A stretch of 32,000 bases of DNA from Halogeometricum borinquense DSM 11551 (GCF_000172995.2 NC_014729.1:1860001-1892000), one strand, 5' to 3'; shown: positions 5,892-30,895, counted from the stretch's first letter. A program made the numbers and translations. Notes: generated from the letters alone by a model not told the origin.

Positions 5892-6070
5892 ATGCGGTCG
5901 GACGGTCCAACTGTCCGCTAAACCGAATATTCTCATTACTCTTGATTTCGGCGTATCAGGCCTTGAGACGCAATAATAACCATTATGGCCGTCCGGAAAT
6001 GGTATTCAGTTGAACGGCTATTCCATCCGTGAACTCGCGGCGTTGTTCGCGGGCGGAGCCTGCAGGTGGG

Positions 6071-6079
6071 TATATAAAA
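6071..6079 (+). promoter_or_regulatory. TATA-like box (TATATAAAA)
   Basis: tatataaaa at 6071-6079, upstream of the HalOD1 ORF. It argues against ATG 6081 and for ATG 6144 as the start. Confidence 0.3.
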
Positions 6080-6143
6080 GATGGGACGGACTACGTCAGC
6101 AACGACAAAACGTTGCACAGATATTGTATCGAACCCGGAACGA

Positions 6144-6365
6144 ATGACGGTCGAAATCGTCTCCCTTGTCACGGATGTAAAAGGGTGTCAACCGATGGAC
6201 CTCGAACCGCTCTCGAACGTTACGGATCCGGATGCACTGGAAAACTTGATTCGAGAAACGGCGGCAGGCGAGTTCGAGATCGGATTTGACTACGAAGGCG
6301 GACGGCTCTCAATTTCGTCGGATGGAACTATCGAGTTCGACCTGTCTGTGGACCGCTCGACCTAA
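6144..6365 (+). CDS. Stand-alone HalOD1 (halobacterial output domain 1) protein
   Basis: MTVEIVSLVTDVKGCQPMDLEPLSNVTDPDALENLIRE...FEIGFDYEGGRLSISSDGTIEF: the characteristic HalOD1 pattern (xxELPPLyxxvDPDALdxLf ... F.y.g..v.v). The ORF is open from 6081. Confidence 0.7.
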   Translation: MTVEIVSLVTDVKGCQPMDLEPLSNVTDPDALENLIRETAAGEFEIGFDYEGGRLSISSDGTIEFDLSVDRST

Positions 6366-6486
6366 CGTTTCGTCCTGACTGATTCTGTTCGGACGTTCAC
6401 AAAGGATATCGAACGCTGAACGCACAGTTTGCGGAGTGCGCTGCGACCGAGCAGTTTCTTCGTCCCTGCGCTATTGGGACGGTGAT

Positions 6487-6888
6487 CTACGGCTCATAAT
6501 GGCTGACGTGCTCCGGTTTGATCGAGATCATTACGCGTTCGGTCTGGATGGGGTTGGGATACTCGTCTTTCCCCATATACCGCTTTGACATCTCGTCGAT
6601 CTGCTCGCGTGCGCCTTCTGTGGTCATCTCGTCAACCTCTCCCTGAACTGAAAGCATCCGGTAGGGATTGTCCGGATCTGTCATACTGATGGCGACTCGC
6701 GGGTCGTTTCGGATGTTTTTCTCTTTTCGGCGGCCGCGTTCGGTGTTCACTAACAGCCGGTCCGCGTCGACGTCGTAATCGATCCACACTGGCGTCACGT
6801 GTGGGCTTCCATCCGGCAACAGCGTCGATAGATGCGCAAATGTCTGTTTCTCGAACAAATCTTGGAAGTCTGCCGGGATTGATGCCAT
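6487..6888 (-). CDS. Pyridoxamine 5'-phosphate oxidase (PPOX) family / F420-dependent-like protein
   Basis: 133 aa. FAHLSTLLPDGSPHVTPVWIDYD...LLVNTERGRRKEKNIRNDPRVAISMTDPDNPYRMLSVQGEV. Confidence 0.8.
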   Translation of the reverse strand: MASIPADFQDLFEKQTFAHLSTLLPDGSPHVTPVWIDYDVDADRLLVNTERGRRKEKNIRNDPRVAISMTDPDNPYRMLSVQGEVDEMTTEGAREQIDEMSKRYMGKDEYPNPIQTERVMISIKPEHVSHYEP

Positions 6889-7103
6889 AGTGAATATAGG
6901 TGTGAAAGCTACTAATACGCACTTACAGCATTCTGGTAACTACATTCGGGGTTGGATTCGTGGGAGGATCTATTTCGTTCGCAGAGTATTATTTTCTCGA
7001 CGGTTTGGTGCCCATCTTCTCTGTTTACTCGATCCGAACACACGCGACGCGGTACTTGTCAGTCGTAGTTTCGGAGTCGTATAAGGCGGAGAGGTTGTGA
7101 ATT

Positions 7104-7187
7104 ACGGTCGGAGCAAGCTCCTCTCTAGCTCAACTCCTCCTTGTGAACGTCATACTGAACTCACGCGGTACGCGAGCGACAGAGCGC
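7104..7187 (+). repeat. Left direct repeat (attL-like)
   Basis: acggtcggagcaagctcctctctagctcaactcctccttgtgaacgtcatactgaactcacgcGgtacgcgagcgacagagcgc. It matches 10212-10295 except G/T at one position. It is preceded by a degenerate copy (7086-7103) of the tRNA-3'-like stub seen at 10190-10211. Confidence 0.9.
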
Positions 7188-7211
7188 GGACGCTTTCGGA
7201 GTTGGTGCATC

Positions 7212-7511
7212 GTGAGTCTGCTCGACCGACTTCATGAGGAGTACGAGTCCGATGGTTCGCTCGTCCTGTTCCGCTGTACCGAGTGTGGACAGACAGCGAT
7301 GAGTCTCGGTTCACTTCACGCGCACTGCGAGCAGCACCGCGGCTACACGCGCTTTGGTTTCCAGATACCGTTCACGAGAACCTCACCAGCGAACTTTGAT
7401 CAGCTCATGGAGTTAACGGAGGTACTGCGAGTTGAGGAGACGTCCACGATTTCGCTCGCGGACGTGGAGGGGTTGCAGAATACCAAACCGTACGTTTCAT
7501 TCGCGGGCTGA
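7212..7511 (+). CDS. Small C2H2 zinc-finger protein
   Basis: FRCTECGQTAMSLGSLHAHCEQH fits F-x-C-x2-C-x12-H-x3-H, including the conserved Leu. The ORF is open from 7143 (inside the repeat). GTG 7212 (VSLLDRLHEE) is the likelier start, but this is uncertain. Confidence 0.55.
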   Translation: MSLLDRLHEEYESDGSLVLFRCTECGQTAMSLGSLHAHCEQHRGYTRFGFQIPFTRTSPANFDQLMELTEVLRVEETSTISLADVEGLQNTKPYVSFAG

Positions 7512-7657
7512 TCAGGCTCCATTTTCAACGACTATATCAACCCTCAATATAGATACGACAAATAGATATTATTCCATATTCACTAACCAATGTTAATTGA
7601 TTTCATTTCGGTATTTATTTATCCTGACATTTAGTCATCTAGTTGGTACTCTGATAT
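7512..7657 (+). promoter_or_regulatory. Strongly AT-rich intergenic/promoter region in front of the four-gene cassette
   Basis: About one-third G+C by eye. Contains several TATA-like strings (tatttattta at 7612-7621, catttag at 7628-7634) 25-45 nt before ATG 7658. Confidence 0.35.
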
Positions 7658-8113
7658 ATGAGTGATCTAACGAGAAGAAATGTGCTGAGTATTATGGGAA
7701 CAACCGGACTCCTGACGATGGGCACTGGAATCGGTGCTGCGAAGCCCGACACCTATCCTACCGTTGACGATCTCGGTCCCTTCGAAGACATGACGGTCGA
7801 TCAAATGGCTGCTGGTGCTGCGAAACATCCTAATCAGGACCGTATCGCTATCGTCACCGCAGCGTTTGGTGACGGCATTCAGCTCTACATCGCAGACGGC
7901 ACTCGAAATCTCAGTGACACGCCCGAGACAGTCTACCAGATCACCCAGGACGCTGTGGCTGGCGTGTACGAGCCAGAGTGGAAAGACGGGAATCGGCTCG
8001 AATACGTCATGGACTTCACGCGATACACGCGGAAGATAACCCCATCGTACGTTGTTCTGGATCACAAAACTGTGACGGAGAATGTCCTTGACGAAGAGGA
8101 GGGGGATGACTAA
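7658..8113 (+). CDS. Tat-secreted hypothetical protein (151 aa)
   Basis: MSDLTRRNVLSIMGTTGLLTMGTGIGAAKP is a twin-arginine signal. The mature part is acidic with a C-terminal EEEGDD. No family recognised. Confidence 0.65.
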   Translation: MSDLTRRNVLSIMGTTGLLTMGTGIGAAKPDTYPTVDDLGPFEDMTVDQMAAGAAKHPNQDRIAIVTAAFGDGIQLYIADGTRNLSDTPETVYQITQDAVAGVYEPEWKDGNRLEYVMDFTRYTRKITPSYVVLDHKTVTENVLDEEEGDD

Positions 8114-8595
8114 TGGCGTCTCTCCCATTCCCCGTTCCGAGTGGATTCCCTTTCGACCTGTGTACACCAACCCCCAATGGAACACAACTGTGCGTTCAGA
8201 CCGGCAGTATTCAAGAGAACATTGGCGAACCGCGAGACTGTAACGATGGTCAGACTCCCCCACTTGTCTCAGTCGATCTAACCTACCAGGAGAAGACTAT
8301 CTCACTCGGTGACGCTGAGGTACTCGTCGAGAATTCCATATGGATCGGTATCGAAGAGGACCTGAATGCAGTGTGGGTGGGTGAACCGAAGAGTGGCTCC
8401 TGCTACCGCCATAACTTGAATAATATTGATCCTACCGCTGCTCTCGATACTGTACTTAAGAAGGCGGGGGATGCAGCAGACGCCAGTGTCAGAGACCTTG
8501 GTATGAACCCCAACAGCGGCCCTGGCCAAGTCTTGGCACTAATCATCATGGTGGTTCTATTCCTCATAGCTGACGGGGCCCCAGATCCGGTTTGA
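8113..8595 (+). CDS. Hypothetical Cys-containing protein with a C-terminal TM anchor (160 aa)
   Basis: The start overlaps the upstream stop (TAATG at 8111-8115). Contains 4 Cys. The C-terminal hydrophobic segment VLALIIMVVLFLIA is followed by DGAPDPV. No N-terminal signal peptide is seen. Confidence 0.55.
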   Translation: MASLPFPVPSGFPFDLCTPTPNGTQLCVQTGSIQENIGEPRDCNDGQTPPLVSVDLTYQEKTISLGDAEVLVENSIWIGIEEDLNAVWVGEPKSGSCYRHNLNNIDPTAALDTVLKKAGDAADASVRDLGMNPNSGPGQVLALIIMVVLFLIADGAPDPV

Positions 8596-8642
8596 GATCT
8601 GGAGCATAGGCTTTAGATATATTCACAGCTATTTTACATTCA

Positions 8643-8960
8643 ATGGCACTGCTTCGAAATCTCAAGCCAAAAGAAATTGGTGGGTTGATTCTCGCATTGT
8701 TCGGACTGTTACTTTTGCTCTTGGGATCGAACTCACTACTGATGCAAAGTACACTGGTGTTTCTAGGGTTGGTAGGCTTCGCATCGCTACTGGACTTGCC
8801 GTTTCCTCGGCACCATCTTCTTGCCCCTCTGTCACTGGGGGCAGTGGCTTTCGCTATCGTCTCATACCTTCAAGTGGGACTTACTGTGGGGGGAACGGCA
8901 ATCGCTATCCTTGGGATCGCCATTGCATTCATGTATGGACGGAGACAGGAGTTCCTATGA
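8643..8960 (+). CDS. Hypothetical small membrane protein (105 aa, about 3 TM)
   Basis: IGGLILALFGLLLLLLG / LVFLGLVGFASLL / LSLGAVAFAIVSYL...AILGIAIAFMY. A hand-counted 60-nt sample at the 5' end is 43% GC. Confidence 0.6.
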   Translation: MALLRNLKPKEIGGLILALFGLLLLLLGSNSLLMQSTLVFLGLVGFASLLDLPFPRHHLLAPLSLGAVAFAIVSYLQVGLTVGGTAIAILGIAIAFMYGRRQEFL

Positions 8961-9367
8961 CATCGTATCCAGATACTGGATCACGATGGTGGTACGGTGT
9001 TGCGCTCCAGTTGGTAGTCGTAGGAGCGGTCTGGATTGCGTGGGGGACGGTTTGGTTGCTCGGTGTCGAAAGTGCCGGTACCCCTCCGTCGCTCCTGCCT
9101 GCTAACGACGCTGTTGAGATTCCATTTCTCCTAGCGAGTGTCTCCACGGTGTTGTTGATCTTTGCACACTACGTCTTGACACCTGTCTTCAGTATGGGCT
9201 TGTATCTCGACAGCAAGCACGTATCTGCGAACAATGGTGGCAGGTCCCTATTTCGATGGATGTACGCGGCGGTGAGCGTGATACATTTGCTCTCGTTGCT
9301 CCTGCCGGTGATCCAATTCGTGACGCTTCCCGCAGGCGGAGTGTACTTAATTAACAGACACAAATGA
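8957..9367 (+). CDS. Hypothetical small membrane protein (136 aa, about 4 TM)
   Basis: ATGA start/stop overlap with the preceding gene (8957-8960). Hydrophobic segments: WWYGVALQLVVVGAVWIAWGTVWLLGV, FLLASVSTVLLIFAHYVLTPVF, MYAAVSVIHLLSLLLPVIQFV. Confidence 0.6.
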   Translation: MTSYPDTGSRWWYGVALQLVVVGAVWIAWGTVWLLGVESAGTPPSLLPANDAVEIPFLLASVSTVLLIFAHYVLTPVFSMGLYLDSKHVSANNGGRSLFRWMYAAVSVIHLLSLLLPVIQFVTLPAGGVYLINRHK

Positions 9368-9517: not shown

Positions 9518-10140
9518 CTATAGCGAAACCTCTCTCATCGACCTGATGATGCTCTCTTCTGACGGTGCTGCGAGGTAGGGCTCGATTGCGTCGTAACTGC
9601 TCCAACCGCCGCGGGCCATCACGATCCGTGGTGAAATTCTCCCCTCGACGAGCAGGTGGTGCGCCCAGCAGCGGCAGAGATCGTGACTGGAGATGCGCCG
9701 GTAGCCCTGATCGCCTGTATAGTCTGCGGCGGCATCGGCAGCGCGGTCAACCTACGTCTGGACGGTCCGCTTCGAGCGTTGGGCGATAGAGTCAGTCGGT
9801 CCGATCTCGTTGTCGGTGTTCTGGACGTAGCGGTTGATCTGCGCCTCGAGGTTGATCGGGTGCCAGGTGTCACGCTGCTTCCCCCGCTCTGACTGGTCGT
9901 GTCTTTTCCCGCGGTGACTTCGAGTTTGTAGTGACGGCTGTCGGTTCGTCGAGAGATGTCGTTGGGTGTAGGTGTAACGTCGACAACTTCGGCGTCGCAG
10001 TGTTCGGCTTCCGAGTCCGGAACGTACCGGAGGCCGTCAACAAGCTGGTGAACGGCGGATTCAGCGGCGTTACCCCCGCGCTTGGACGGCGCGAGGCTCA
10101 CGCGCAGCACCTCTGCTGGCGGGGCGGTAACGTGAGATAA
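9518..10140 (-). pseudogene. Tyrosine recombinase/integrase pseudogene (N-terminally truncated, one frameshift and one in-frame stop)
   Basis: The C-terminal frame reads KQRDTWHPINLEAQINRYV...RSKRTVQT*VDRAADAAADYTGDQGYRRISSHDLCRCWAHHLLVEGRISPRIVMARGGWSSYDAIEPYL (HxxR box, GGW...Y catalytic Tyr region). TAG at 9752-9754 sits where Trp is expected. The upstream part (...AEVVDVTPTPNDISRRTDSRHYKLEVTAGKDTTSQSGG) is in a different frame, with the junction at 9878-9886. No SAM-like N-terminal domain remains. Confidence 0.75.
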
Positions 10141-10189
10141 GCGTAGAGGTGTCCCTATATATAGGGTGCCGAAGGAATTAAATTCGGAG

Positions 10190-10211
10190 TGAGGTCGGAG
10201 GGATTTGAACC
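10190..10211 (-). other. tRNA 3'-end-like stub (T-loop/acceptor look-alike), not a functional tRNA
   Basis: tgaggtcggagggatttgaacc is near-identical to the 3' end of tRNA-Trp (tggggtcggagggatttgaacc at 10324-10345). The T-stem does not pair and there is no 5' acceptor strand. Confidence 0.6.
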
Positions 10212-10295
10212 ACGGTCGGAGCAAGCTCCTCTCTAGCTCAACTCCTCCTTGTGAACGTCATACTGAACTCACGCTGTACGCGAGCGACAGAGCGC
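10212..10295 (+). repeat. Right direct repeat (attR-like)
   Basis: 83/84 identical to 7104-7187. Confidence 0.9.
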
Positions 10296-17500: not shown

Positions 17501-18103
17501 ATGAGTGCTGACCAGCCGCTCGTGCTCATCGTGGAAGATGAGCCGGACCTCGCCGACCTGTACGCAACCTGGCTCAGGGAGAAATGTCGCGTTCGCGTCG
17601 CATACGGTGGCCGCGAGGCCCTCGACGAACTCGACGACGACGTCGATGTCGTTCTCCTCGACCGCCGGATGCCGGATCTCTCCGGAGACGAAGCCCTCAC
17701 AGAGATACGGAACCGGGGATTCGAATGTCGTGTCGCCATGGTAACAGCTGTCGAACCGGATTTCGACATCGTAGCCATGGGATTCGACGACTATCTCGTA
17801 AAGCCAGTCTCCAAAGAAGCCCTCGAAGAGACCGTCGAAAACCTCCTCCGACGAAACACATACAACGACGGCGTCCAAGAACTGTTCTCGCTTGCCTCGA
17901 AGAAAGCACTGTTGGAGTCCGAGAAGGACCCTGCGACCTTAGAGGACAACGAGGAGTATCAGGAACTCGACGCGCGCCTCTCGAAGCTTCGCGAGGACTT
18001 AGACGAGACTCTCCAACAGTTCGACGAAGAACGGGATATTGCCGCCGTCTACCGGGATCTCGGCGACACCTCTGCCTTCGAGAATCTCGAGAGTTCTGAG
18101 TAA
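17501..18103 (+). CDS. Response regulator (receiver domain) with a C-terminal HalX domain
   Basis: LVLIVEDEPDLADLY...VVLLDRRMPDLSGDE (phospho-acceptor Asp)...DYLVKP, then a coiled helical tail NTYNDGVQELFSLASKKALLESEK...EYQELDARLSKLREDLDE typical of HalX. Confidence 0.85.
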   Translation: MSADQPLVLIVEDEPDLADLYATWLREKCRVRVAYGGREALDELDDDVDVVLLDRRMPDLSGDEALTEIRNRGFECRVAMVTAVEPDFDIVAMGFDDYLVKPVSKEALEETVENLLRRNTYNDGVQELFSLASKKALLESEKDPATLEDNEEYQELDARLSKLREDLDETLQQFDEERDIAAVYRDLGDTSAFENLESSE

Positions 18104-18301
18104 CGAACAGAAATCGATCTGCTTCGACTGAATGACCCGTAGTGACGACGTTCGTCACGTGTGACTAGTCTAACGGACAGTATACCCCGTGTGAAGCGAC
18201 CACAACGTTTATTTGTAAGAAATTATATCTAAATTGAGTTAATTTCATGTTAGATCTTCTAGAAAAAATTAATCTATCTGGGCGTTCTGTGTTCATACGT
18301 C

Positions 18302-18445
18302 ATGTCCGAAACTGACACGAACGCGGTCGCACAGTACCTTGCCGAACACCCCCGCATGATGGGCGTCCTGTTCACGATGCTGCTGCTGCTCTCACAAGCA
18401 GGTTCAGTCGCAGCGGGAAACAACGCCGGTATCTACGGTCCGTAA
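18302..18445 (+). CDS. 47-aa micro-protein: one hydrophobic segment (signal-peptide-like) plus a 9-aa tail
   Basis: Below the ORF-track cutoff. MSETDTNAVAQYLAEHPRMMGVLFTMLLLLSQAGSVAAGNNAGIYGP. An AT-rich TATA-like string (aaaaaattaatc, 18263-18274) lies about 30 nt upstream. I recall similar small haloarchaeal ORFs, but this is unverified. Confidence 0.5.
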   Translation: MSETDTNAVAQYLAEHPRMMGVLFTMLLLLSQAGSVAAGNNAGIYGP

Positions 18446-18449
18446 ATAC

Positions 18450-20612
18450 TCAAAGACTATCTAAGTCCAGATCGTCACTCCACTGAAGTTGACCATTTAC
18501 GAGTAATGGGATGTTTTCCAGATCCAAGAAGTCATTTAGTTCCTCTAAACTGAGTGTAAACGAATCAACCGAACCGGAACCGAGATAATGAGTCTCGACA
18601 CTCGGAAGCAACGGTATTACGAGCCCACACATTCCAACGTGGCTTCCCGGATATACACGATAATCTACATTGAAACCCTCTGTTGTCCGGGTGATGACAC
18701 ACGTGTTAGGATATAAACCGTCACTCTGCGCAACTGCGAGTCCACCGTCACCGAGGACAATATAGCTGTCACCGACGGCGTTCTCACCGCGGACAAGTCC
18801 AAGTGCACTACGAATCGGAAATCCTTGATTCAGCAACCGAGCAAGCATCGAGCCGACCTCTACGGCACTACTGTTCACAACATCTTCGAGCGTGACGATA
18901 CCGGCGATAGCACCCGCGTTGATCAGGTGCATCCCCTGTTCGTACGACCGGCAGGCGTTGAGTAAGAAGGCGTCCATCCCTACATCGGACAGTGTCGAGG
19001 CGTCCAACGTCCCGTCGGAACACTGGAATCCGTCGTTGTCGATGTGGCCGATGTAGTGGAAGAAGTCCGTCTGTGTGGCGAGGGCCTCGCGGAGTTCGTC
19101 TTTCGTCAGTTCGTACTGGACTTGCACGTCGAACGGAAGCTTTTCGCGCGACCCGTACACCGCTTCTACGTCCTCGCGCTCGTCTGCCATCCGCGGGTCG
19201 TTGCAGACGACGGTGATACCGATATCACCCTCCGTCGGCGACCGATACAGACGATTGCGGTACGCTTGCAGGGATGCTTTGCTCGCCCCGATGGGCGTCC
19301 CGTCACCCAACCACGCCTGCTCGAGCGAATCCGTTTTCTCGGGTTGGACGTAGCTTCGTTCGGGTAACGATGCAGACTGCGTCGCGCTCCGCGTAAACCC
19401 GGCGTTGGGGGTCTGCGGCGACGACCGCAGGAAGGCATCGACTGCCTCCGCCTGTGTCGTCGAACCCGCCGACGGTTTCGTGTGTGGCGTCCGAACGATT
19501 GCCAAGTCGTTTGCAACGAACGGAAGCAGTTCGACGTTCCCCGGCGTCGGCGTCACGTGCGTCGTGAGTTTCCACTCGGGAACGTGCCCGGCGACCGTCT
19601 CGTACGGAACCTGTAGGTAGGCTTCGACCTGTTCGGCCGTGGGTCGGTCGTACAACGCGGCAAAGTCGAGATCAAGGTCCGATTCGACCGCTTGCCGTTC
19701 GTGCAACTCGACCTGATAGTAGCCTTCCGTTCGAGTGAGACAGTCGAGGAAGAACGTCTGCTTCAGAACGCGCTCGACTTCCCGCTCGTACCCCGCGGTT
19801 GTATCGAGGTCGTATGTGAATCCGCTGTCAGTGCGAAGTCGCGGCGTGTCGCCTTCCACGACGGTTGCACCGAGATAGTACGCTAACGGTGCCGCCACGT
19901 ACACGTGCCGATACGTCGCCGGCAGTTCGAGCGTGATGCCCGTCTCCGGCGGTGCCAAATCTGGCGGTGCTTTGAACTGCTCGCCGCGTTCGATAAGCGG
20001 CGGATGCCCGCGGAGTGTGGGATACGAGCGTTCGGGCGACGTCGATTTCAATGCGGACCCGAGAAGCGACACCGCGCGCATCATCGAACGCGGGTCGTCG
20101 GGTGTCGTTATCGTCGCTGCCGGTCGCTTGTGGTGTGACCGCGCACCGACGAGAACCTCCGTTTCCTCGTCGAACGAGATGGTCGTCTGCGTCGCATCGG
20201 AAGTTATCGTCACCGGTGCGTTGACGCGTACGTACGTCTTCACCGGGGCGAACAGTTCGAGACTGTACGTCGCGCGCGGGAACGACTCCGAGGCGAAGTG
20301 TTCGGTCTGGCCGAGCATCTGTCCCTCGTCGTCGCGGATGCAAACTGAGACGACCGTCTGGAGTTCGAGCTGATCCGTTTGGAAGCGAACTGCGGCGTCA
20401 GCGGGGAACCAGAACGCACTCGGGTCGGTGGGTTCCGGGTCGATCACCGAAGGTGTCGAAAGTTCGAACTGATGACGCTCTATCGGGTCGGTAACCACGA
20501 CTCCGTCACCCCCGGATGCGGCGTCGAGCGAGAGTTCGAGATACGTCTCTGAACTATCAAATGACGGCGAACTCTCAGAATCCCCGAACCCTTCCATCAT
20601 CTTTTCAGTCAC
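18450..20612 (-). CDS. 720-aa protein: unknown N-terminal ~460 aa plus a C-terminal CHAT (caspase-like cysteine protease) domain
   Basis: GITVVCNDPRMADEREDVEAVYG...LTKDELREALATQTDFFHYIGH(523)IDNDG...GMDAFLLNAC(554)RSYEQG...AGAIAGIVTLEDVVNSSAVEVGSMLARLLNQGFPIRSALGLVR follows the CHAT consensus. His codon at 19044-19046, Cys codon at 18951-18953. Confidence 0.75.
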   Translation of the reverse strand: MTEKMMEGFGDSESSPSFDSSETYLELSLDAASGGDGVVVTDPIERHQFELSTPSVIDPEPTDPSAFWFPADAAVRFQTDQLELQTVVSVCIRDDEGQMLGQTEHFASESFPRATYSLELFAPVKTYVRVNAPVTITSDATQTTISFDEETEVLVGARSHHKRPAATITTPDDPRSMMRAVSLLGSALKSTSPERSYPTLRGHPPLIERGEQFKAPPDLAPPETGITLELPATYRHVYVAAPLAYYLGATVVEGDTPRLRTDSGFTYDLDTTAGYEREVERVLKQTFFLDCLTRTEGYYQVELHERQAVESDLDLDFAALYDRPTAEQVEAYLQVPYETVAGHVPEWKLTTHVTPTPGNVELLPFVANDLAIVRTPHTKPSAGSTTQAEAVDAFLRSSPQTPNAGFTRSATQSASLPERSYVQPEKTDSLEQAWLGDGTPIGASKASLQAYRNRLYRSPTEGDIGITVVCNDPRMADEREDVEAVYGSREKLPFDVQVQYELTKDELREALATQTDFFHYIGHIDNDGFQCSDGTLDASTLSDVGMDAFLLNACRSYEQGMHLINAGAIAGIVTLEDVVNSSAVEVGSMLARLLNQGFPIRSALGLVRGENAVGDSYIVLGDGGLAVAQSDGLYPNTCVITRTTEGFNVDYRVYPGSHVGMCGLVIPLLPSVETHYLGSGSVDSFTLSLEELNDFLDLENIPLLVNGQLQWSDDLDLDSL

Positions 20613-20669
20613 GGTTCACGACTAAAAGCGTGTTGGTAGTTGACAAGTGTCAAATTTGAATAATTTTGG

Positions 20670-21413
20670 TCATCCCAGAACGAGCCAATCTGAAGTTATA
20701 TTGGCATCGCGGAAGTGCCATCGTTGTTGTAGTTCCGTCCCATCCAATCGGAGTTCAACGGTCGCATCAAACAATGGCTCAAGAACGAGTGCAGCGTTAT
20801 CGTCTTTCTCACGCGGAAGCCAGAAGTGAACCATCCCGTTGACAGTACGAACGTGGTTTGCGAGAATATGTGAGAACTGAAACGCTGTTTCGAGATCGTA
20901 CTCCGCGAGAAGAACCGGTAAGCAGTCGAATGCGAGACGAAGCTCCGCAGGAGTCATTCCGCCGGCGATGCTCTCAAACTGCTCTATGATCTTCGTAATC
21001 TCTCGACCGAGTGCGATAATGTCACCATCGACGCGTTGAGCCAACGCGTTCCGCGTGGCCTCTGCGTCCATCGCAGTTTCGAGGTCGGGCGAGGAAATCG
21101 TCGGATTGCTCGCGCTAACCGCCGCAGTGCTCCGGGCAGTCGTCTCGAATTCGATGATACGAGTCCATTCGGGCGTTTGACGCCGAATGGCGTCCAGGCG
21201 GGAGTCCTGCTTACCGTCGGAAACTCCTGTCACGAGAAGGCGGCGTCGCAACTCTCCATCACCGAGCATCCGCGCCGAAGCACGTCGGTATACCTCTGCC
21301 GGAACCGAGCCGACGACAAGAAGTGCGCTTCCACGCTGTTTCAGGTTGTCGAGGGCCGAAGCGAGTTCCGGGGCATCCGACTGGACGGTGTTAGCCCCGT
21401 CTCCCTGATCCAT
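20670..21413 (-). CDS. Haloarchaeal RecA/KaiC-like fold protein lacking a Walker A P-loop (function unknown)
   Basis: 247 aa from MDQGDG. A TATA-like aaagtattattt lies 27-38 nt upstream on the minus strand. GSALLVVGSVPAEV occupies the position of a P-loop but has no GK[ST]. The C-terminal ...ELRLAFDCLPVLLAEYDLETAFQFSHILANHVRTVNGMVHFWLP...LFDATVELRL resembles halobacterial degenerate KaiC-like paralogues. This assignment is from memory. Confidence 0.55.
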   Translation of the reverse strand: MDQGDGANTVQSDAPELASALDNLKQRGSALLVVGSVPAEVYRRASARMLGDGELRRRLLVTGVSDGKQDSRLDAIRRQTPEWTRIIEFETTARSTAAVSASNPTISSPDLETAMDAEATRNALAQRVDGDIIALGREITKIIEQFESIAGGMTPAELRLAFDCLPVLLAEYDLETAFQFSHILANHVRTVNGMVHFWLPREKDDNAALVLEPLFDATVELRLDGTELQQRWHFRDANITSDWLVLG

Positions 21414-21626
21414 TCGTATGTATTCACGGCACCACACCAAATAATACTTTGTGTATCTGATGGGTCTTGTATCTAGAGTATTCGCAACGGCGAAATATGT
21501 CGTTTGGAGAGAACGAACGGCGTTCGTGAGACGAATCGTGGTCTTCTCTGAGTATCACTGTAGATAGTGTCCTATACACGAGTAACCGTCGTCTTCGGCG
21601 GTTGCACTGACATCGTCGACCGACGA

Positions 21627-28957: not shown

Positions 28958-29098
28958 ATGTGGGTGAACTCGAGAGACACGGTTGAAATATCTGTGTTCT
29001 AATGATACCAATCGAATAGGTATGGATTCGAGACTGTTCCTTGCATCCACCGACGTATTGGAAAAGACACAATAGGCGTGCGAACACCAACTCTGTCG

Positions 29099-30895
29099 AT
29101 GGCCCTCTCTGACGTCTTTCTCACCCCGCTGGGATTCGCCGCCCTTGCCGCCGCGATTCCCATCCTCATTCTGTATCTGGTTCGCCCCGATCCGCGGCGG
29201 ATTCAGTTCCCGACGTACCAGTTCCTCACAGAGGACCAACGAGAGAACGAGTCGAACCCGGTATTCGAACGACTCAAACGAAGTACGCTGTTGCTGTTGC
29301 AACTGCTGGTGATTCTCCTGCTCGCCACGGCGCTGTCCACGCCGTACGTGTCTACTTCGCAGTCCGAAACCGTCGAGGAGACGGTCTTAGTCGTGGATGC
29401 AAGCGCCAGCATGAACGTTCAGTCCGACGGCGGGACGCGATTCTCGCGTGCTGTCTCCGAGGCGCAGGATGCCGTCACCGGCACTACCTCTATCGTCGTC
29501 GCCGGTGCGGAGCCACGTGTCGAACTCCGGAGCGGGCCGGCGGACGATGCGAAGTCGGTTCTCACGGGTCTGTCGCCCACTGACGCACCCGGTGATTTAC
29601 GCTCGGCCATCTCTACAGCGGCATCTATCGCGGGTGAAGGATCCCGAATCGTCGTCGTAAGCGACTTCGCCGATGACAGTGCGTGGCGGGACGCGGTCCG
29701 CGTTGCCCGCGCTCGCGGTCTGTCGGTCGAACTCCGCCAGTTCAATGGCGGCGGGGCAGGCAACGTTGGTATCGTCAGCCGGTCGTTTTCGGGCACCGAG
29801 GTGACGGTGTCGCTGAAGAACTACGGCAACGATTCCGTGACGCGAAGCGTCTCGCTCGGCGGCACACAGAAGTCGCTGTCGCTCGGCCCGGGCGACGTTC
29901 GTTCGGTGACGTTCCAGATTCCGGCGAGCGGCGGGACGGTCACACTTTCGCCCGGCGATGACTTCCCGACGGACGACACCGCTTCGGTCGCCGCACCGCC
30001 GGACGCCGTCGTGGACGTTCTCGTCGTGACGAACGACGAGAACAACTACCTCACGACCGCGCTCTCGGTCATCGATAGCGTCAAACTCACGGTGAAGAAC
30101 CCGCCGACGCCGACGGACGGCAACTACGACGTGGTCGTCTACTCGAACGTGGAGGGCGAACGACTCCTCGCGGGCAACCTGCAGGCGGGACGTGACGCAA
30201 TCAAGAACGGCGGCGGCGTCGTGATTCAGGCGCAGTCACCCATGCCGAAGCGGTACGACGATCTGCTTTTGCTCTCCCCCAACGGAACGGGGACGAACCC
30301 GACGCTCACCTCGCCCGCAAAGACGGAACTGATGCGGAACATCAACTTCCCACCGCCGGAGCTGTACCTCCAAGGCGAACTCCGCGAGGGGAAGGCGCTC
30401 TTGAAAACGGCAGATGGTACGCCGATGATCGCAACCGCCCAGCGCGGTTCCGGCCAGATACTCTACTACGGCTACATCGAGTCGGACTCGTCGTTCAAGT
30501 ACAACTACCAGTATCCGGTGTTCTGGAAGCGCGCTGTCTACGACCTCGCCGGACGGCCGCCGCTCTCGGCGTTGAACGAGCAGACCGGCACGCGCCTGTC
30601 GTTCGAGAACGAGACGAGCATTACGACGCCCGAGGGTGCGGTCACCGCGTCGTCTGTCCGTCTCGACGATTCCGGGTTCTACGAAGTTGACGGCACGCGA
30701 TACAGCGCGTCGCTGTTGAGTGAATCCGAGTCCGCCGTCGTCGCGTCCGACATCGGCGCCACAGATAACGAGAGCGTGGCGTCGCGCGAGGAAGAGAAAA
30801 CCGCTCCGGACCCGCTGACCGAATGGGTCGCACTCGCCGCTATCGGTGGCGTCGTCCTCGAAGTCGCCTACCTCCGCCGACGAGGTGATCTCTAA
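29099..30895 (+). CDS. BatA-like membrane protein: N-terminal double-TM aerotolerance-regulator-type domain plus VWA domain plus C-terminal TM
   Basis: FLTPLGFAALAAAIPILILYLVRPDPRRIQFPTYQFL (BatA N-terminal motif). VLVVDASASM (DxSxS MIDAS). C-terminal EWVALAAIGGVVLEVAYLRRRG. ATG 29099 is preferred to GTG 29078. Confidence 0.8.
   Translation: MALSDVFLTPLGFAALAAAIPILILYLVRPDPRRIQFPTYQFLTEDQRENESNPVFERLKRSTLLLLQLLVILLLATALSTPYVSTSQSETVEETVLVVDASASMNVQSDGGTRFSRAVSEAQDAVTGTTSIVVAGAEPRVELRSGPADDAKSVLTGLSPTDAPGDLRSAISTAASIAGEGSRIVVVSDFADDSAWRDAVRVARARGLSVELRQFNGGGAGNVGIVSRSFSGTEVTVSLKNYGNDSVTRSVSLGGTQKSLSLGPGDVRSVTFQIPASGGTVTLSPGDDFPTDDTASVAAPPDAVVDVLVVTNDENNYLTTALSVIDSVKLTVKNPPTPTDGNYDVVVYSNVEGERLLAGNLQAGRDAIKNGGGVVIQAQSPMPKRYDDLLLLSPNGTGTNPTLTSPAKTELMRNINFPPPELYLQGELREGKALLKTADGTPMIATAQRGSGQILYYGYIESDSSFKYNYQYPVFWKRAVYDLAGRPPLSALNEQTGTRLSFENETSITTPEGAVTASSVRLDDSGFYEVDGTRYSASLLSESESAVVASDIGATDNESVASREEEKTAPDPLTEWVALAAIGGVVLEVAYLRRRGDL

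Follow-up and report, generated by a model that had tools for sequence, protein, structure and literature searches.

CHAT proteases that are switched on by an attached or bound sensor are known from bacteria, and SAVED-CHAT (8tl0) and the Craspase component TPR-CHAT/Csx29 (7y84, 8d9h) are the closest described examples. A eukaryotic counterpart is separase, which is controlled by a small bound partner. The subject of this article is an undescribed module of three genes, found in the class Halobacteria only, that can be compared with these proteases. It lies in a stretch of 32,000 nucleotides from Halogeometricum borinquense DSM 11551 (NC_014729.1, 1860001-1892000); this whole stretch is called the window, and positions are counted from its first letter. 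The module encodes a predicted cysteine protease of 720 amino acids (CHAT720), a protein of the Pfam family DUF7504, and a micro-protein of the Pfam family DUF7503, and it looks like a peptide-processing or peptide-signalling system. The types of component were already known; the three-part module, the hypervariable cassette that is shared by the protease and micro-protein genes, and the multi-copy peptides of some relatives are new. The features of the module in the window are:

18302-18445 (stop included), plus strand: DUF7503 gene, 47 amino acids, MSETDTNAVAQYLAEHPRMMGVLFTMLLLLSQAGSVAA followed by GNNAGIYGP; exact match to ADQ67526.1
18416-18442, plus strand: codons of the variable nonapeptide GNNAGIYGP, with its invariant C-terminal Gly-Pro
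18412-18885, spanning both strands: hypervariable cassette, with codons for CHAT720 residues ~576-720 on one strand and for the C-terminal tail of DUF7503 on the other
18450-20612, minus strand: CHAT720 gene, 720 amino acids from a GTG start, predicted soluble clan-CD (CHAT/separase-like) cysteine protease
18753-19220, minus strand: predicted CHAT/caspase-fold catalytic domain (AlphaFold2 model and Foldseek), residues ~465-620
18951-18953, minus strand: codon of the predicted catalytic Cys554 (LNAC), an invariant dyad residue
19044-19046, minus strand: codon of the predicted catalytic His523 (HYIGH), an invariant dyad residue
19221-19517, minus strand: variable linker of low confidence (predicted local distance difference test, pLDDT, <50), residues ~366-464, with indel-rich alignment columns
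19578-20540, minus strand: conserved N-terminal region, residues ~25-345, predicted as a beta-sandwich and an alpha/beta part; ERSYPTLRGHPP is one of its invariant motifs
20613-20669, minus strand: spacer of 57 nucleotides between DUF7504 and CHAT720, AT-rich with TATA-like stretches on direct reading of the sequence
20670-21413, minus strand: DUF7504 gene, 247 amino acids from an ATG start; exact match to ADQ67528.1 of H. borinquense

A preliminary description of this DNA had proposed a two-gene module made of minus-strand genes at 18450-20612 and 20670-21413, 57 nucleotides apart. These coordinates are correct and both genes do belong to the module, but the tightest partner, DUF7503, and the hypervariable cassette had been overlooked. 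The motifs that it had picked out are also present: HYIGH (H523) and LNAC (C554) at a spacing of 31 residues, then INAGAIAGIV, and GSALLVVGSVPAEV in the smaller protein, where it occupies residues 28-41.

Is CHAT720 a member of the CHAT proteases? Against the Pfam CHAT profile (PF12770) it scores 14.2 bits, short of the cut-off of 24 (E 0.03), so that the gathering score is missed; the profile matches only seven of 18 family members, at E 6.5e-5 in the best case. Searches of PDB sequences with CHAT720 alone and with a 139-sequence profile returned noise only, and NCBIfam gave nothing useful for either CHAT720 or the DUF7504 protein. A first full-length AlphaFold2 model, built from 18 sequences, had a pLDDT of 58 and a poor catalytic part, and its Foldseek matches were weak (receiver domains and caspases, E~1e-2). 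It has been replaced by a model of residues 440-720 that was built from 139 homologues, with a pLDDT of 86 and a predicted template modelling score of 0.86. The Foldseek matches of this model in the PDB include SAVED-CHAT 8tl0 (E 1.7e-7) and separase 5fby (8e-7), followed by gingipains, the CHAT anti-sigma factor DdvA, Craspase TPR-CHAT, and caspases. At E<=1e-3 the top 27 matches all belong to clan CD, and caspases come just beneath that cut-off. H523 and then C554, each at the end of a strand, are invariant in the alignments of 18 and 139 sequences. The model-based matches and the invariant dyad support a CHAT/separase-type fold of clan CD for the C-terminal region, with an active-looking His-Cys domain. 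This agrees with the CHAT/caspase-fold reading that had been made from the motifs, in spite of the sub-threshold Pfam score.

The features that CHAT720 shares with SAVED-CHAT and Craspase are the caspase/CHAT fold with a His-Cys dyad (Foldseek E 1.7e-7 and 2.4e-4) and a protease joined to a specificity or sensor module. In contrast to these systems, the haloarchaeal module has no SAVED, TPR, gRAMP, or CRISPR parts and, as noted, does not reach the Pfam CHAT cut-off. Its variable module is a C-terminal beta-rich domain and its partner a ribosomal micro-peptide, whereas the partners of SAVED-CHAT and Craspase are a nucleotide signal or an RNA-guided complex; moreover, it is archaeal, chromosomal, and set in a housekeeping context. 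Neither the window nor the related loci with inspected gene tables or annotations contain gRAMP/Cas7-11, SAVED, or cyclase neighbours, and no TPR was matched in CHAT720 by Pfam or Foldseek, the variable domain being beta-rich. Separase (C50; 5fby, 7nj1) resembles CHAT720 in that a large non-catalytic region is followed by a CHAT-like protease, over ~200 aligned columns. It differs in being eukaryotic, in its helical-repeat N-terminus, and in having no sequence-level relation to CHAT720, and the partner in the haloarchaeal module is a protein of 43-48 amino acids with a hypervariable tail.

The N-terminal region of CHAT720 (residues ~25-345) is the most conserved portion of the protein in the alignment, and pLDDT is about 80-90 across most of it. 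Pfam and PDB sequence searches found no relatives of this region, and Foldseek gave no significant match to it with the full-length model. It had been described as an orphan N-terminus of the size of a sensor; the orphan status stands, but the sensor-like variable part of the protein is the C-terminal domain. CHAT720 has no hydrophobic stretch of transmembrane grade. Its start codon is uncertain, as ATG codons at 20600 or 20597 would give proteins of 716 or 715 amino acids. The homologues number more than 1,800 and come from Halobacteria wherever the source is named. The family is closed: a profile search of 1.84 billion representatives yielded 896 clusters at 50% identity, and the best 150 of these 896 are nearly all full-length (~700 amino acids).

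Which gene is the partner of the protease? In 80 of the 87 genome loci that were seeded on the protease, DUF7503 is adjacent and convergent, and for 58 of these the distance to the protease stop falls between -20 and +19 nucleotides. Conversely, a metagenome scan seeded on DUF7503 found a convergent CHAT720 gene in 68 of the 73 loci with room (93%) and one more at a distance of 735 nucleotides. In the window the two genes are also convergent, and the final stop base of DUF7503 is 4 nucleotides from the protease stop. Even in families that share none of the other neighbours, and in plasmid paralogues, these two genes remain together. DUF7503 is the tightest partner of the protease, while DUF7504 is adjacent in only 50-63% of loci (52 of 83 genome loci by cluster count, 50 of 80 by tblastn); it is present in 19 of the 39 metagenome loci with enough flank.

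The 47-residue protein matches DUF7503 (PF24335) at E 1.2e-23, with 82.9 bits against a cut-off of 27. Members of the family have a short acidic N-terminus, the motif Y-L-x-x-[HN]-P-[RK], an apolar run of exactly 13 residues (30 of 30 sequences), the motif Q-A-G-x-x-A-A, and a variable tail. In 25 of the 30 sequences this tail is 8-9 residues long and ends in Gly-Pro; typically the unit G-N-x5-G-P stands at the extreme C-terminus. The positional entropy of the tail is 2.4-3.0 bits, and GP is conserved at 95%. By inspection, the canonical leader is signal-peptide-like, with an n-h-c layout, whereas variants from Haloplanus and Halococcus lack the hydrophobic part; the hydrophobic stretch is borderline for a transmembrane segment (Kyte-Doolittle 19-residue mean 1.73). 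It is proposed that DUF7503 is the precursor of a short peptide. The nonapeptide is very probably a released product, and the adjoining protease, with a variable domain that travels with the peptide, is very probably its natural cognate. Between the upstream HalX gene and DUF7503 lies an AT-rich segment of 198 nucleotides (18104-18301; G+C about 0.5 or less). With its TATA-like runs ~27-40 nucleotides upstream of the DUF7503 ATG, this segment is a likely promoter for a leaderless transcript.

Short pro-peptides of a similar format are known from bacteria. The Phr and AimP pro-peptides consist of a signal-like leader and a C-terminal active peptide, the same format as DUF7503. By analogy with the Rap-Phr and AimR-AimP systems (RRNPP), DUF7503 may be seen as a pro-peptide of ~45 amino acids with a signal-like N-terminus, a short C-terminal peptide, and a cognate protein encoded next to it; in both cases variable positions are followed by constant terminal residues.

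The peptide and the protease do not vary independently of each other in closely related strains. When the window is compared with a second strain of H. borinquense (CP048739), DNA identity is 97-100% over 15 kb outside positions 18412-18885. Within these positions there are 200 mismatches (~50% identity), and the borders are sharp. In the protease, the cassette takes in the final helix and the final strand of the CHAT fold together with the beta-rich C-terminal domain (~120 residues). On the opposite strand, the tail of DUF7503 changes from GNNAGIYGP to GNHVGISGP, while the DUF7503 body and the whole of DUF7504 are unchanged. The identity trough recurs in all seven further close pairs, which come from Haloferax, Haloarcula, and uncultured Halobacteriales; identities of the protein core and of the C-terminal domain in other close pairs are 0.99/0.44, 0.94/0.47, and 0.93/0.47.

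How has this cassette arisen? In five of the eight pairs with finite estimates, synonymous divergence (dS) is 3-15-fold higher in the C-terminal domain than in the core, and omega, the ratio of nonsynonymous divergence (dN) to dS, is low in both cassette and core (~0.1-0.2; core range 0.03-0.17). Raised dS with an omega of ~0.1-0.2 therefore indicates old alleles that were brought in by recombination. Positive selection in situ was considered as the cause of the cassette and is ruled out, since in these five of eight pairs dS climbs with dN and omega stays at ~0.1-0.2. Within clades, a partial Mantel analysis relates the tail to the C-terminal domain in Haloferax (r=0.38, p=0.0014) and in Haloarcula (r=0.48, p=0.0006). 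Among close pairs, tail similarity correlates with that of the C-terminal domain at rho 0.78, compared to 0.39 with that of the protein core. In Haloplanus, residues of the protease C-terminal domain segregate with the peptide variant. Haloarcula pairs (L075/L080, L078/L079, and L064/L060) show a second short spot of low identity: counted from the protease stop it lies at about -2240 to -2180, which places it at the 5' end of the gene or slightly upstream.

A sharply bounded hypervariable segment that spans part of a peptide-handling enzyme and the peptide itself is reminiscent of agr (AgrB-AgrD-AgrC) and comQXP. In these Firmicutes systems, anciently diverged alleles are exchanged by recombination. 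The enzymes are unrelated to CHAT720, AgrB being a membrane protease and ComQ an isoprenyl transferase. In contrast to agr and comQXP, the haloarchaeal module has no linked receptor kinase, and nothing in it implies thiolactone or prenylation chemistry.

In several Haloplanus species, the position of DUF7503 is occupied by a different kind of gene. It encodes a short acidic leader, without a hydrophobic part, followed by tandem copies of A-D-G-N-x-G-x-x-S-G-P-x-T, in which x-T/N-A-D spacers separate the nine-residue units. The number of copies is two in a metagenome-assembled genome, six in Haloplanus litoreus, 13 in Haloplanus ruber, and 14 in Haloplanus rubicundus. In Haloplanus litoreus the DNA repeats with a period of 39 bp (5.7 copies, 98% match), and the 14-copy array is a gene of 202 amino acids that has been called independently in the NCBI assembly. 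Haloplanus vescus also has many copies of the repeat, which breaks the assembly (run of N). The array open reading frames (ORFs), all tandem repeats on the minus strand, are located as follows:

L025, 8067-8363
L017, 8094-8660
L013, 3744-3881
L173, 4621-5229
L174, 4621-5275

Every one of the Haloplanus array precursors terminates exactly in ...SGP. Haloplanus halobius has a normal single-copy DUF7503 with the tail GNSGAISGP; taken together with the arrays, this indicates that the same nonamer, GNxxxxSGP, comes either as a single unit after a hydrophobic leader or as many units that lack such a leader. The Haloplanus precursors thus have the layout of multi-core precursors, in which a leader is followed by core units that recur with a conserved peptide sequence, and by analogy they resemble the tandem multi-copy precursors of yeast alpha-factor and cyanobactin PatE. 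No conserved modification enzyme was found in the neighbourhood of the module. The module differs from RRNPP and multi-core systems in having no TPR receptor and no modification enzymes, in arrays that lack an export signal, and in the use of a clan-CD protease. More generally, where a canonical DUF7503 is missing and the sequence is readable, all loci have a small ORF that abuts the protease stop and ends in GP. One Halococcus paralogue has a Cys-rich small ORF of 41 amino acids, MSDSQQQSSEAESPSESIQFTVACCGVTDVSGASACTYSGP, which ends in SGP (L046, 8019-8144, and L052, 8070-8195, both on the minus strand). Neither a Pfam match nor a hydrophobic segment was found in it, and it may be the precursor of a modified peptide.

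What is the role of DUF7504? The 247-residue protein belongs to this family (PF24336) at E 4.2e-54, with all 179 profile positions covered; a TTG at 21440 is another possible start. Where the Walker A motif GxxxxGK[ST] would be expected, the protein reads GSALLVVGSVP and the family GSALLVVGxVP, and no GK[ST] is conserved among 30 orthologues. DUF7504 lacks the conserved Lys-Ser/Thr of Walker A and is therefore not an active member of the KaiC/RecA ATPases. Secondary Pfam matches of the 30 orthologues are to DUF7090 (17) and, weakly, to PAXNEB/Elp4 (nine; best E 1.8e-3). Elp4 itself has the RecA fold but lacks ATPase motifs. Some members carry the UniRef name "KaiC/GvpD/RAD55 RecA-like ATPase", and searches of PDB sequences with the single sequence and with the family profile gave no match. 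On sequence grounds, DUF7504 is most likely an inactivated KaiC/RecA-like pseudo-ATPase, and the KaiC/RecA-type protein without a P-loop that had been suspected from the motif is supported by the family match, the missing GK[ST], the weak Elp4 similarity, the UniRef names, and fusions to the HalOD1 signalling domain.

These fusions were found in two plasmid paralogues from Natronosalvus and Haladaptatus, where HalOD1-DUF7504 genes lie directly upstream of the protease gene (L084, 2901-4010, and L085, 3040-3876, both on the plus strand). A HalOD1-iKaiC architecture was listed by Galperin et al. 2018 (PMC5847659), in the passages on HalOD1 and KaiC, iKaiC being a divergent, possibly inactivated domain that falls in the KaiC superfamily; these fusions match this architecture as it is given there. 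From the shared architecture we infer that DUF7504 is the published iKaiC/arCOG02452. The HalOD1 and KaiC passages of that paper (PMC5847659) do not tie iKaiC to a protease or micro-peptide. The type of the upstream protein had thus already been noted computationally, and its family is not wholly uncharacterised. The DUF7504 gene of Haloplanus ruber is broken up into two ORFs with ~480 nucleotides between them (L017, 4795-5292 and 5776-5922), perhaps by a disruption or an insertion.

DUF7504 lies mostly directly upstream of the protease and in the same direction, and in some loci it is divergent. Across Haloferacaceae there is a syntenic block of aminotransferase, DUF7504, CHAT720, DUF7503, HalX, and IMPDH genes, with TrmB before IMPDH in 18 loci. 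Outside this block, the DUF7504-protease pair occurs in Halorussus, Halalkalicoccus, Halocatena, Halodesulfurarchaeum, and uncultured Halobacteriales. It is also found in all three megaplasmid paralogues inspected, the proteases of which are 42-45% identical to the query. Whether the two genes are syntenic elsewhere was a question raised by the preliminary description, and the recurrence of the pair in genome loci, metagenome loci, and these three paralogues answers it positively. No adjacent DUF7504 was found at the chromosomal loci of Haloarcula, Halococcus, and Haladaptatus. Where DUF7504 is missing, the ORFs immediately upstream of the protease gene belong to no Pfam family except for one Usp protein, and there is no alternative conserved partner. 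The gene on the other side of the module in the window is:

17501-18103, plus strand: REC-HalX response regulator (Pfam), found near the module in 33 of 80 genome loci (tblastn)

The loci with HalX neighbours are mostly from Haloferacaceae, so that this association may be lineage-specific synteny only.

How might the three proteins work together? We infer peptide recognition, cleavage and its sites, export, and a biological role of the nonapeptide from the arrangement described above. The favoured explanation, which is held tentatively and at somewhat less than an even chance, is that the small gene encodes a short-peptide precursor matured by its cognate CHAT720, with the KaiC-like DUF7504 as a scaffold. 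The precursor would be DUF7503 or one of its variants, and the functional element would be the C-terminal unit of ~9 residues. The variable C-terminal domain of CHAT720 would recognise the cognate unit, and the protease would cut the precursor at the junctions between A-(A/D) and G-N, and possibly also after G-P, which would free the nonapeptide. DUF7504 would be a non-catalytic scaffold or regulator that ties the module to haloarchaeal signalling. Among the systems compared here, the only one in which a clan-CD protease acts on peptides is the maturation of plant cyclotides by legumains. Maturation of a micro-peptide by CHAT720 would thus link two things that the closest compared systems, apart from legumains, do not combine. 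The likenesses to agr/comQXP, to Phr/AimP, to multi-core precursors, and to caspase-type tetrapeptide sites (x-T-A-D before G) are analogies and do not imply membership.

Several observations count against precursor maturation by CHAT720. Clan-CD proteases are usually strict at P1, yet the putative junctions vary, with A-A before G in the canonical proteins and A-D before G in the arrays, and many DUF7503 tails lack the Asn. A true Sec signal peptide would be cut by signal peptidase outside the cell, beyond the reach of a cytoplasmic protease. The protease and DUF7503 genes are convergent and therefore not co-transcribed, and about 40-50% of loci have no DUF7504 beside the pair. In Haloferax volcanii the protease gene is frameshifted, and both partner genes are intact. 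Over all loci the partial Mantel correlation is not significant (r=0.03, p=0.32), and physical linkage alone could yield the within-clade signal between tail and C-terminal domain. Finally, much of the DUF7504 adjacency falls inside the single Haloferacaceae block, which by itself weakens the argument from pairing.

The strongest competing explanation reverses the relation of peptide and enzyme. The exported precursor would be trimmed by other proteases, and the nonapeptide would be re-imported, bind the variable C-terminal domain, and switch CHAT720 on or off against other substrates, so that the module would sense quorum or recognise kin and respond by proteolysis. The n-h-c layout of DUF7503 and the 8-9-residue C-terminal peptide of 25 of the 30 sequences speak for this reading, and a receptor-like variable domain adjoins the peptide and co-varies with it. 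Recombination shuffles old allele classes, the megaplasmids of Halorussus and Haladaptatus carry several paralogous cassettes per genome, and a real substrate could bind to the conserved N-terminal region. Rap-Phr cassettes show a similar distribution of several paralogues per genome. Nevertheless, gating of the protease by its peptide is considered unlikely: a hydrophobic export signal is missing from both the Haloplanus arrays and the Halococcus variant, the gene annotation of the window shows no oligopeptide importer linked to the module, the fold of the C-terminal domain is unlike known peptide-receptor folds, and no other candidate substrate is conserved nearby. Alternatively, the small protein might be a regulator or an anchor, either a securin-like pseudo-substrate inhibitor or a tail-anchored tether, with its tail docked on the variable domain. 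Separase is kept inactive by the bound pseudo-substrate securin, and separase is among the best structural matches of CHAT720; the adjacency of the genes is strict, and the hydrophobic stretch is borderline transmembrane. This is distinctly unlikely, given that variants without a hydrophobic segment occupy the same position, that the apolar run has just 13 residues before the invariant Gln, and that amplification of the 9-mer to 14 tandem copies is hard to square with an anchor or with a 1:1 inhibitor. As a general role of the small protein, membrane anchoring is ruled out by the variants that lack the hydrophobic segment.

It has also been considered that the module is a defence or abortive-infection cassette in which a degenerate KaiC-like sensor releases a CHAT effector, the hypervariability being the result of an arms race. 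The structural neighbours SAVED-CHAT and Craspase use CHAT effectors, and hypervariable cassettes and plasmid paralogues are typical of conflict systems; one paralogue adjoins an integrase and another a restriction-modification pair. PADLOC, however, gave no match for the two proteins that were tested, CHAT720 and DUF7504, and there are no relatives among 2.9 million IMG/VR viral contigs. The chromosomal copy sits in a housekeeping block that is conserved across Haloferacaceae genera, the protein core is under strong purifying selection, and no nucleotide-sensor, CRISPR, or NTPase partner is present. A defence cassette thus has a slight chance of being correct, and the defence-like gene context that had been suggested for the module is not supported, given the PADLOC and IMG/VR results and the syntenic housekeeping neighbours. 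The allelic hypervariability and the families of megaplasmid paralogues nonetheless favour some conflict or recognition role. At the far end of the range, the genes may be neighbours by inheritance only, the cassette being a recombination hot spot at the 3' ends of convergent genes without any coupling. Linkage suffices for this account, which draws on the single Haloferacaceae block and on the non-significant global Mantel result. It is very improbable: the protease and micropeptide genes stay together where neighbours differ, in plasmid paralogues of 42-45% identity, and in 93% of DUF7503-seeded loci, and a small gene of altered form keeps both its place against the protease stop and its GP ending.

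A wider claim can also be considered, namely that the module is the first ribosomal-peptide communication or recognition system of Archaea. A hypervariable GN...GP nonapeptide would come from DUF7503 or from the multi-copy arrays and be matured and/or sensed by the protease, whose cognate specificity domain would pass on together with the peptide as a pherotype-like cassette. This claim is doubtful; if true, it would mean strain-specific signalling or kin discrimination with a proteolytic output. The candidate is concrete and easily tested, in that the 9-residue product is predictable from the sequence and the protease has a clear catalytic dyad; furthermore, nature provides allele swaps within one species and precursors of both single-copy and multi-copy type. 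The module provides a functional context for DUF7503 and DUF7504, both Pfam families without a known function, and for the haloarchaeal "inactivated KaiC" proteins. Should the signalling idea prove wrong, the exchange of a protease domain and a micro-peptide tail as one cassette of 0.47 kb would still be unusual as a genetic design.

Peptide-based cell-cell signalling is well established in bacteria, and to our knowledge no ribosomal peptide signal is known in archaea. A literature search found no paper on DUF7503 or DUF7504 and none that links a CHAT protease to haloarchaea; for the CHAT domain together with a precursor peptide, it returned one unrelated study of a Pseudomonas genome. The pairing of a CHAT protease with an inactivated RecA-like protein, for which novelty had been claimed, was likewise not described in any paper that this search found. 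A survey of archaeal ribosomally synthesized and post-translationally modified peptides does not mention CHAT, caspase, tandem, or Haloplanus (PMC12144867). For Haloferax volcanii, the molecule that signals quorum has yet to be identified (PMC13464002).

Paralogues of the protease are present on 27 haloarchaeal megaplasmids, including 12 from Halorussus and five from Haladaptatus, with up to several per genome. Two chromosomal copies are found in some organisms, such as Halococcus morrhuae and a Halobacteriaceae isolate. One plasmid cassette adjoins a tyrosine recombinase, and another (L086) is near a DNA methylase and a SacI-type restriction enzyme.

The protease orthologue of Haloferax volcanii differs from those of H. 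gibbonsii and H. prahovense by a deletion of 2 bp in the (GC)n run GCGCGCGC, which shifts the frame at about residue 272. The deletion was seen in the NCBI assembly GCA_033550185.1 (L088, 6560-6600). Three independent assemblies of H. volcanii sequencing runs contain the same C-terminal ORF of 418 amino acids and no full-length protease gene; DUF7504 and DUF7503 are intact beside the broken gene. It may be that H. volcanii, the main model organism, is naturally mutated here, or that the repeat serves as a switch. A broken copy in this species is a possible reason for the module having gone unstudied.

Elsewhere in the window, the G+C content of positions 6000-9000 is 0.51-0.53, compared to about 0.60 in other parts, and this region is possibly foreign DNA. 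The ORFs at 7658-8113 and 8113-8595, as well as that at 9619-10224, which is just outside the low-G+C region, have no Pfam match. At 29078-30895 on the plus strand, a protein of 605 amino acids combines BatA and VWA domains with DUF7406, DUF7407, and DUF7408; it is another haloarchaeal protein in which domains of unknown function predominate.

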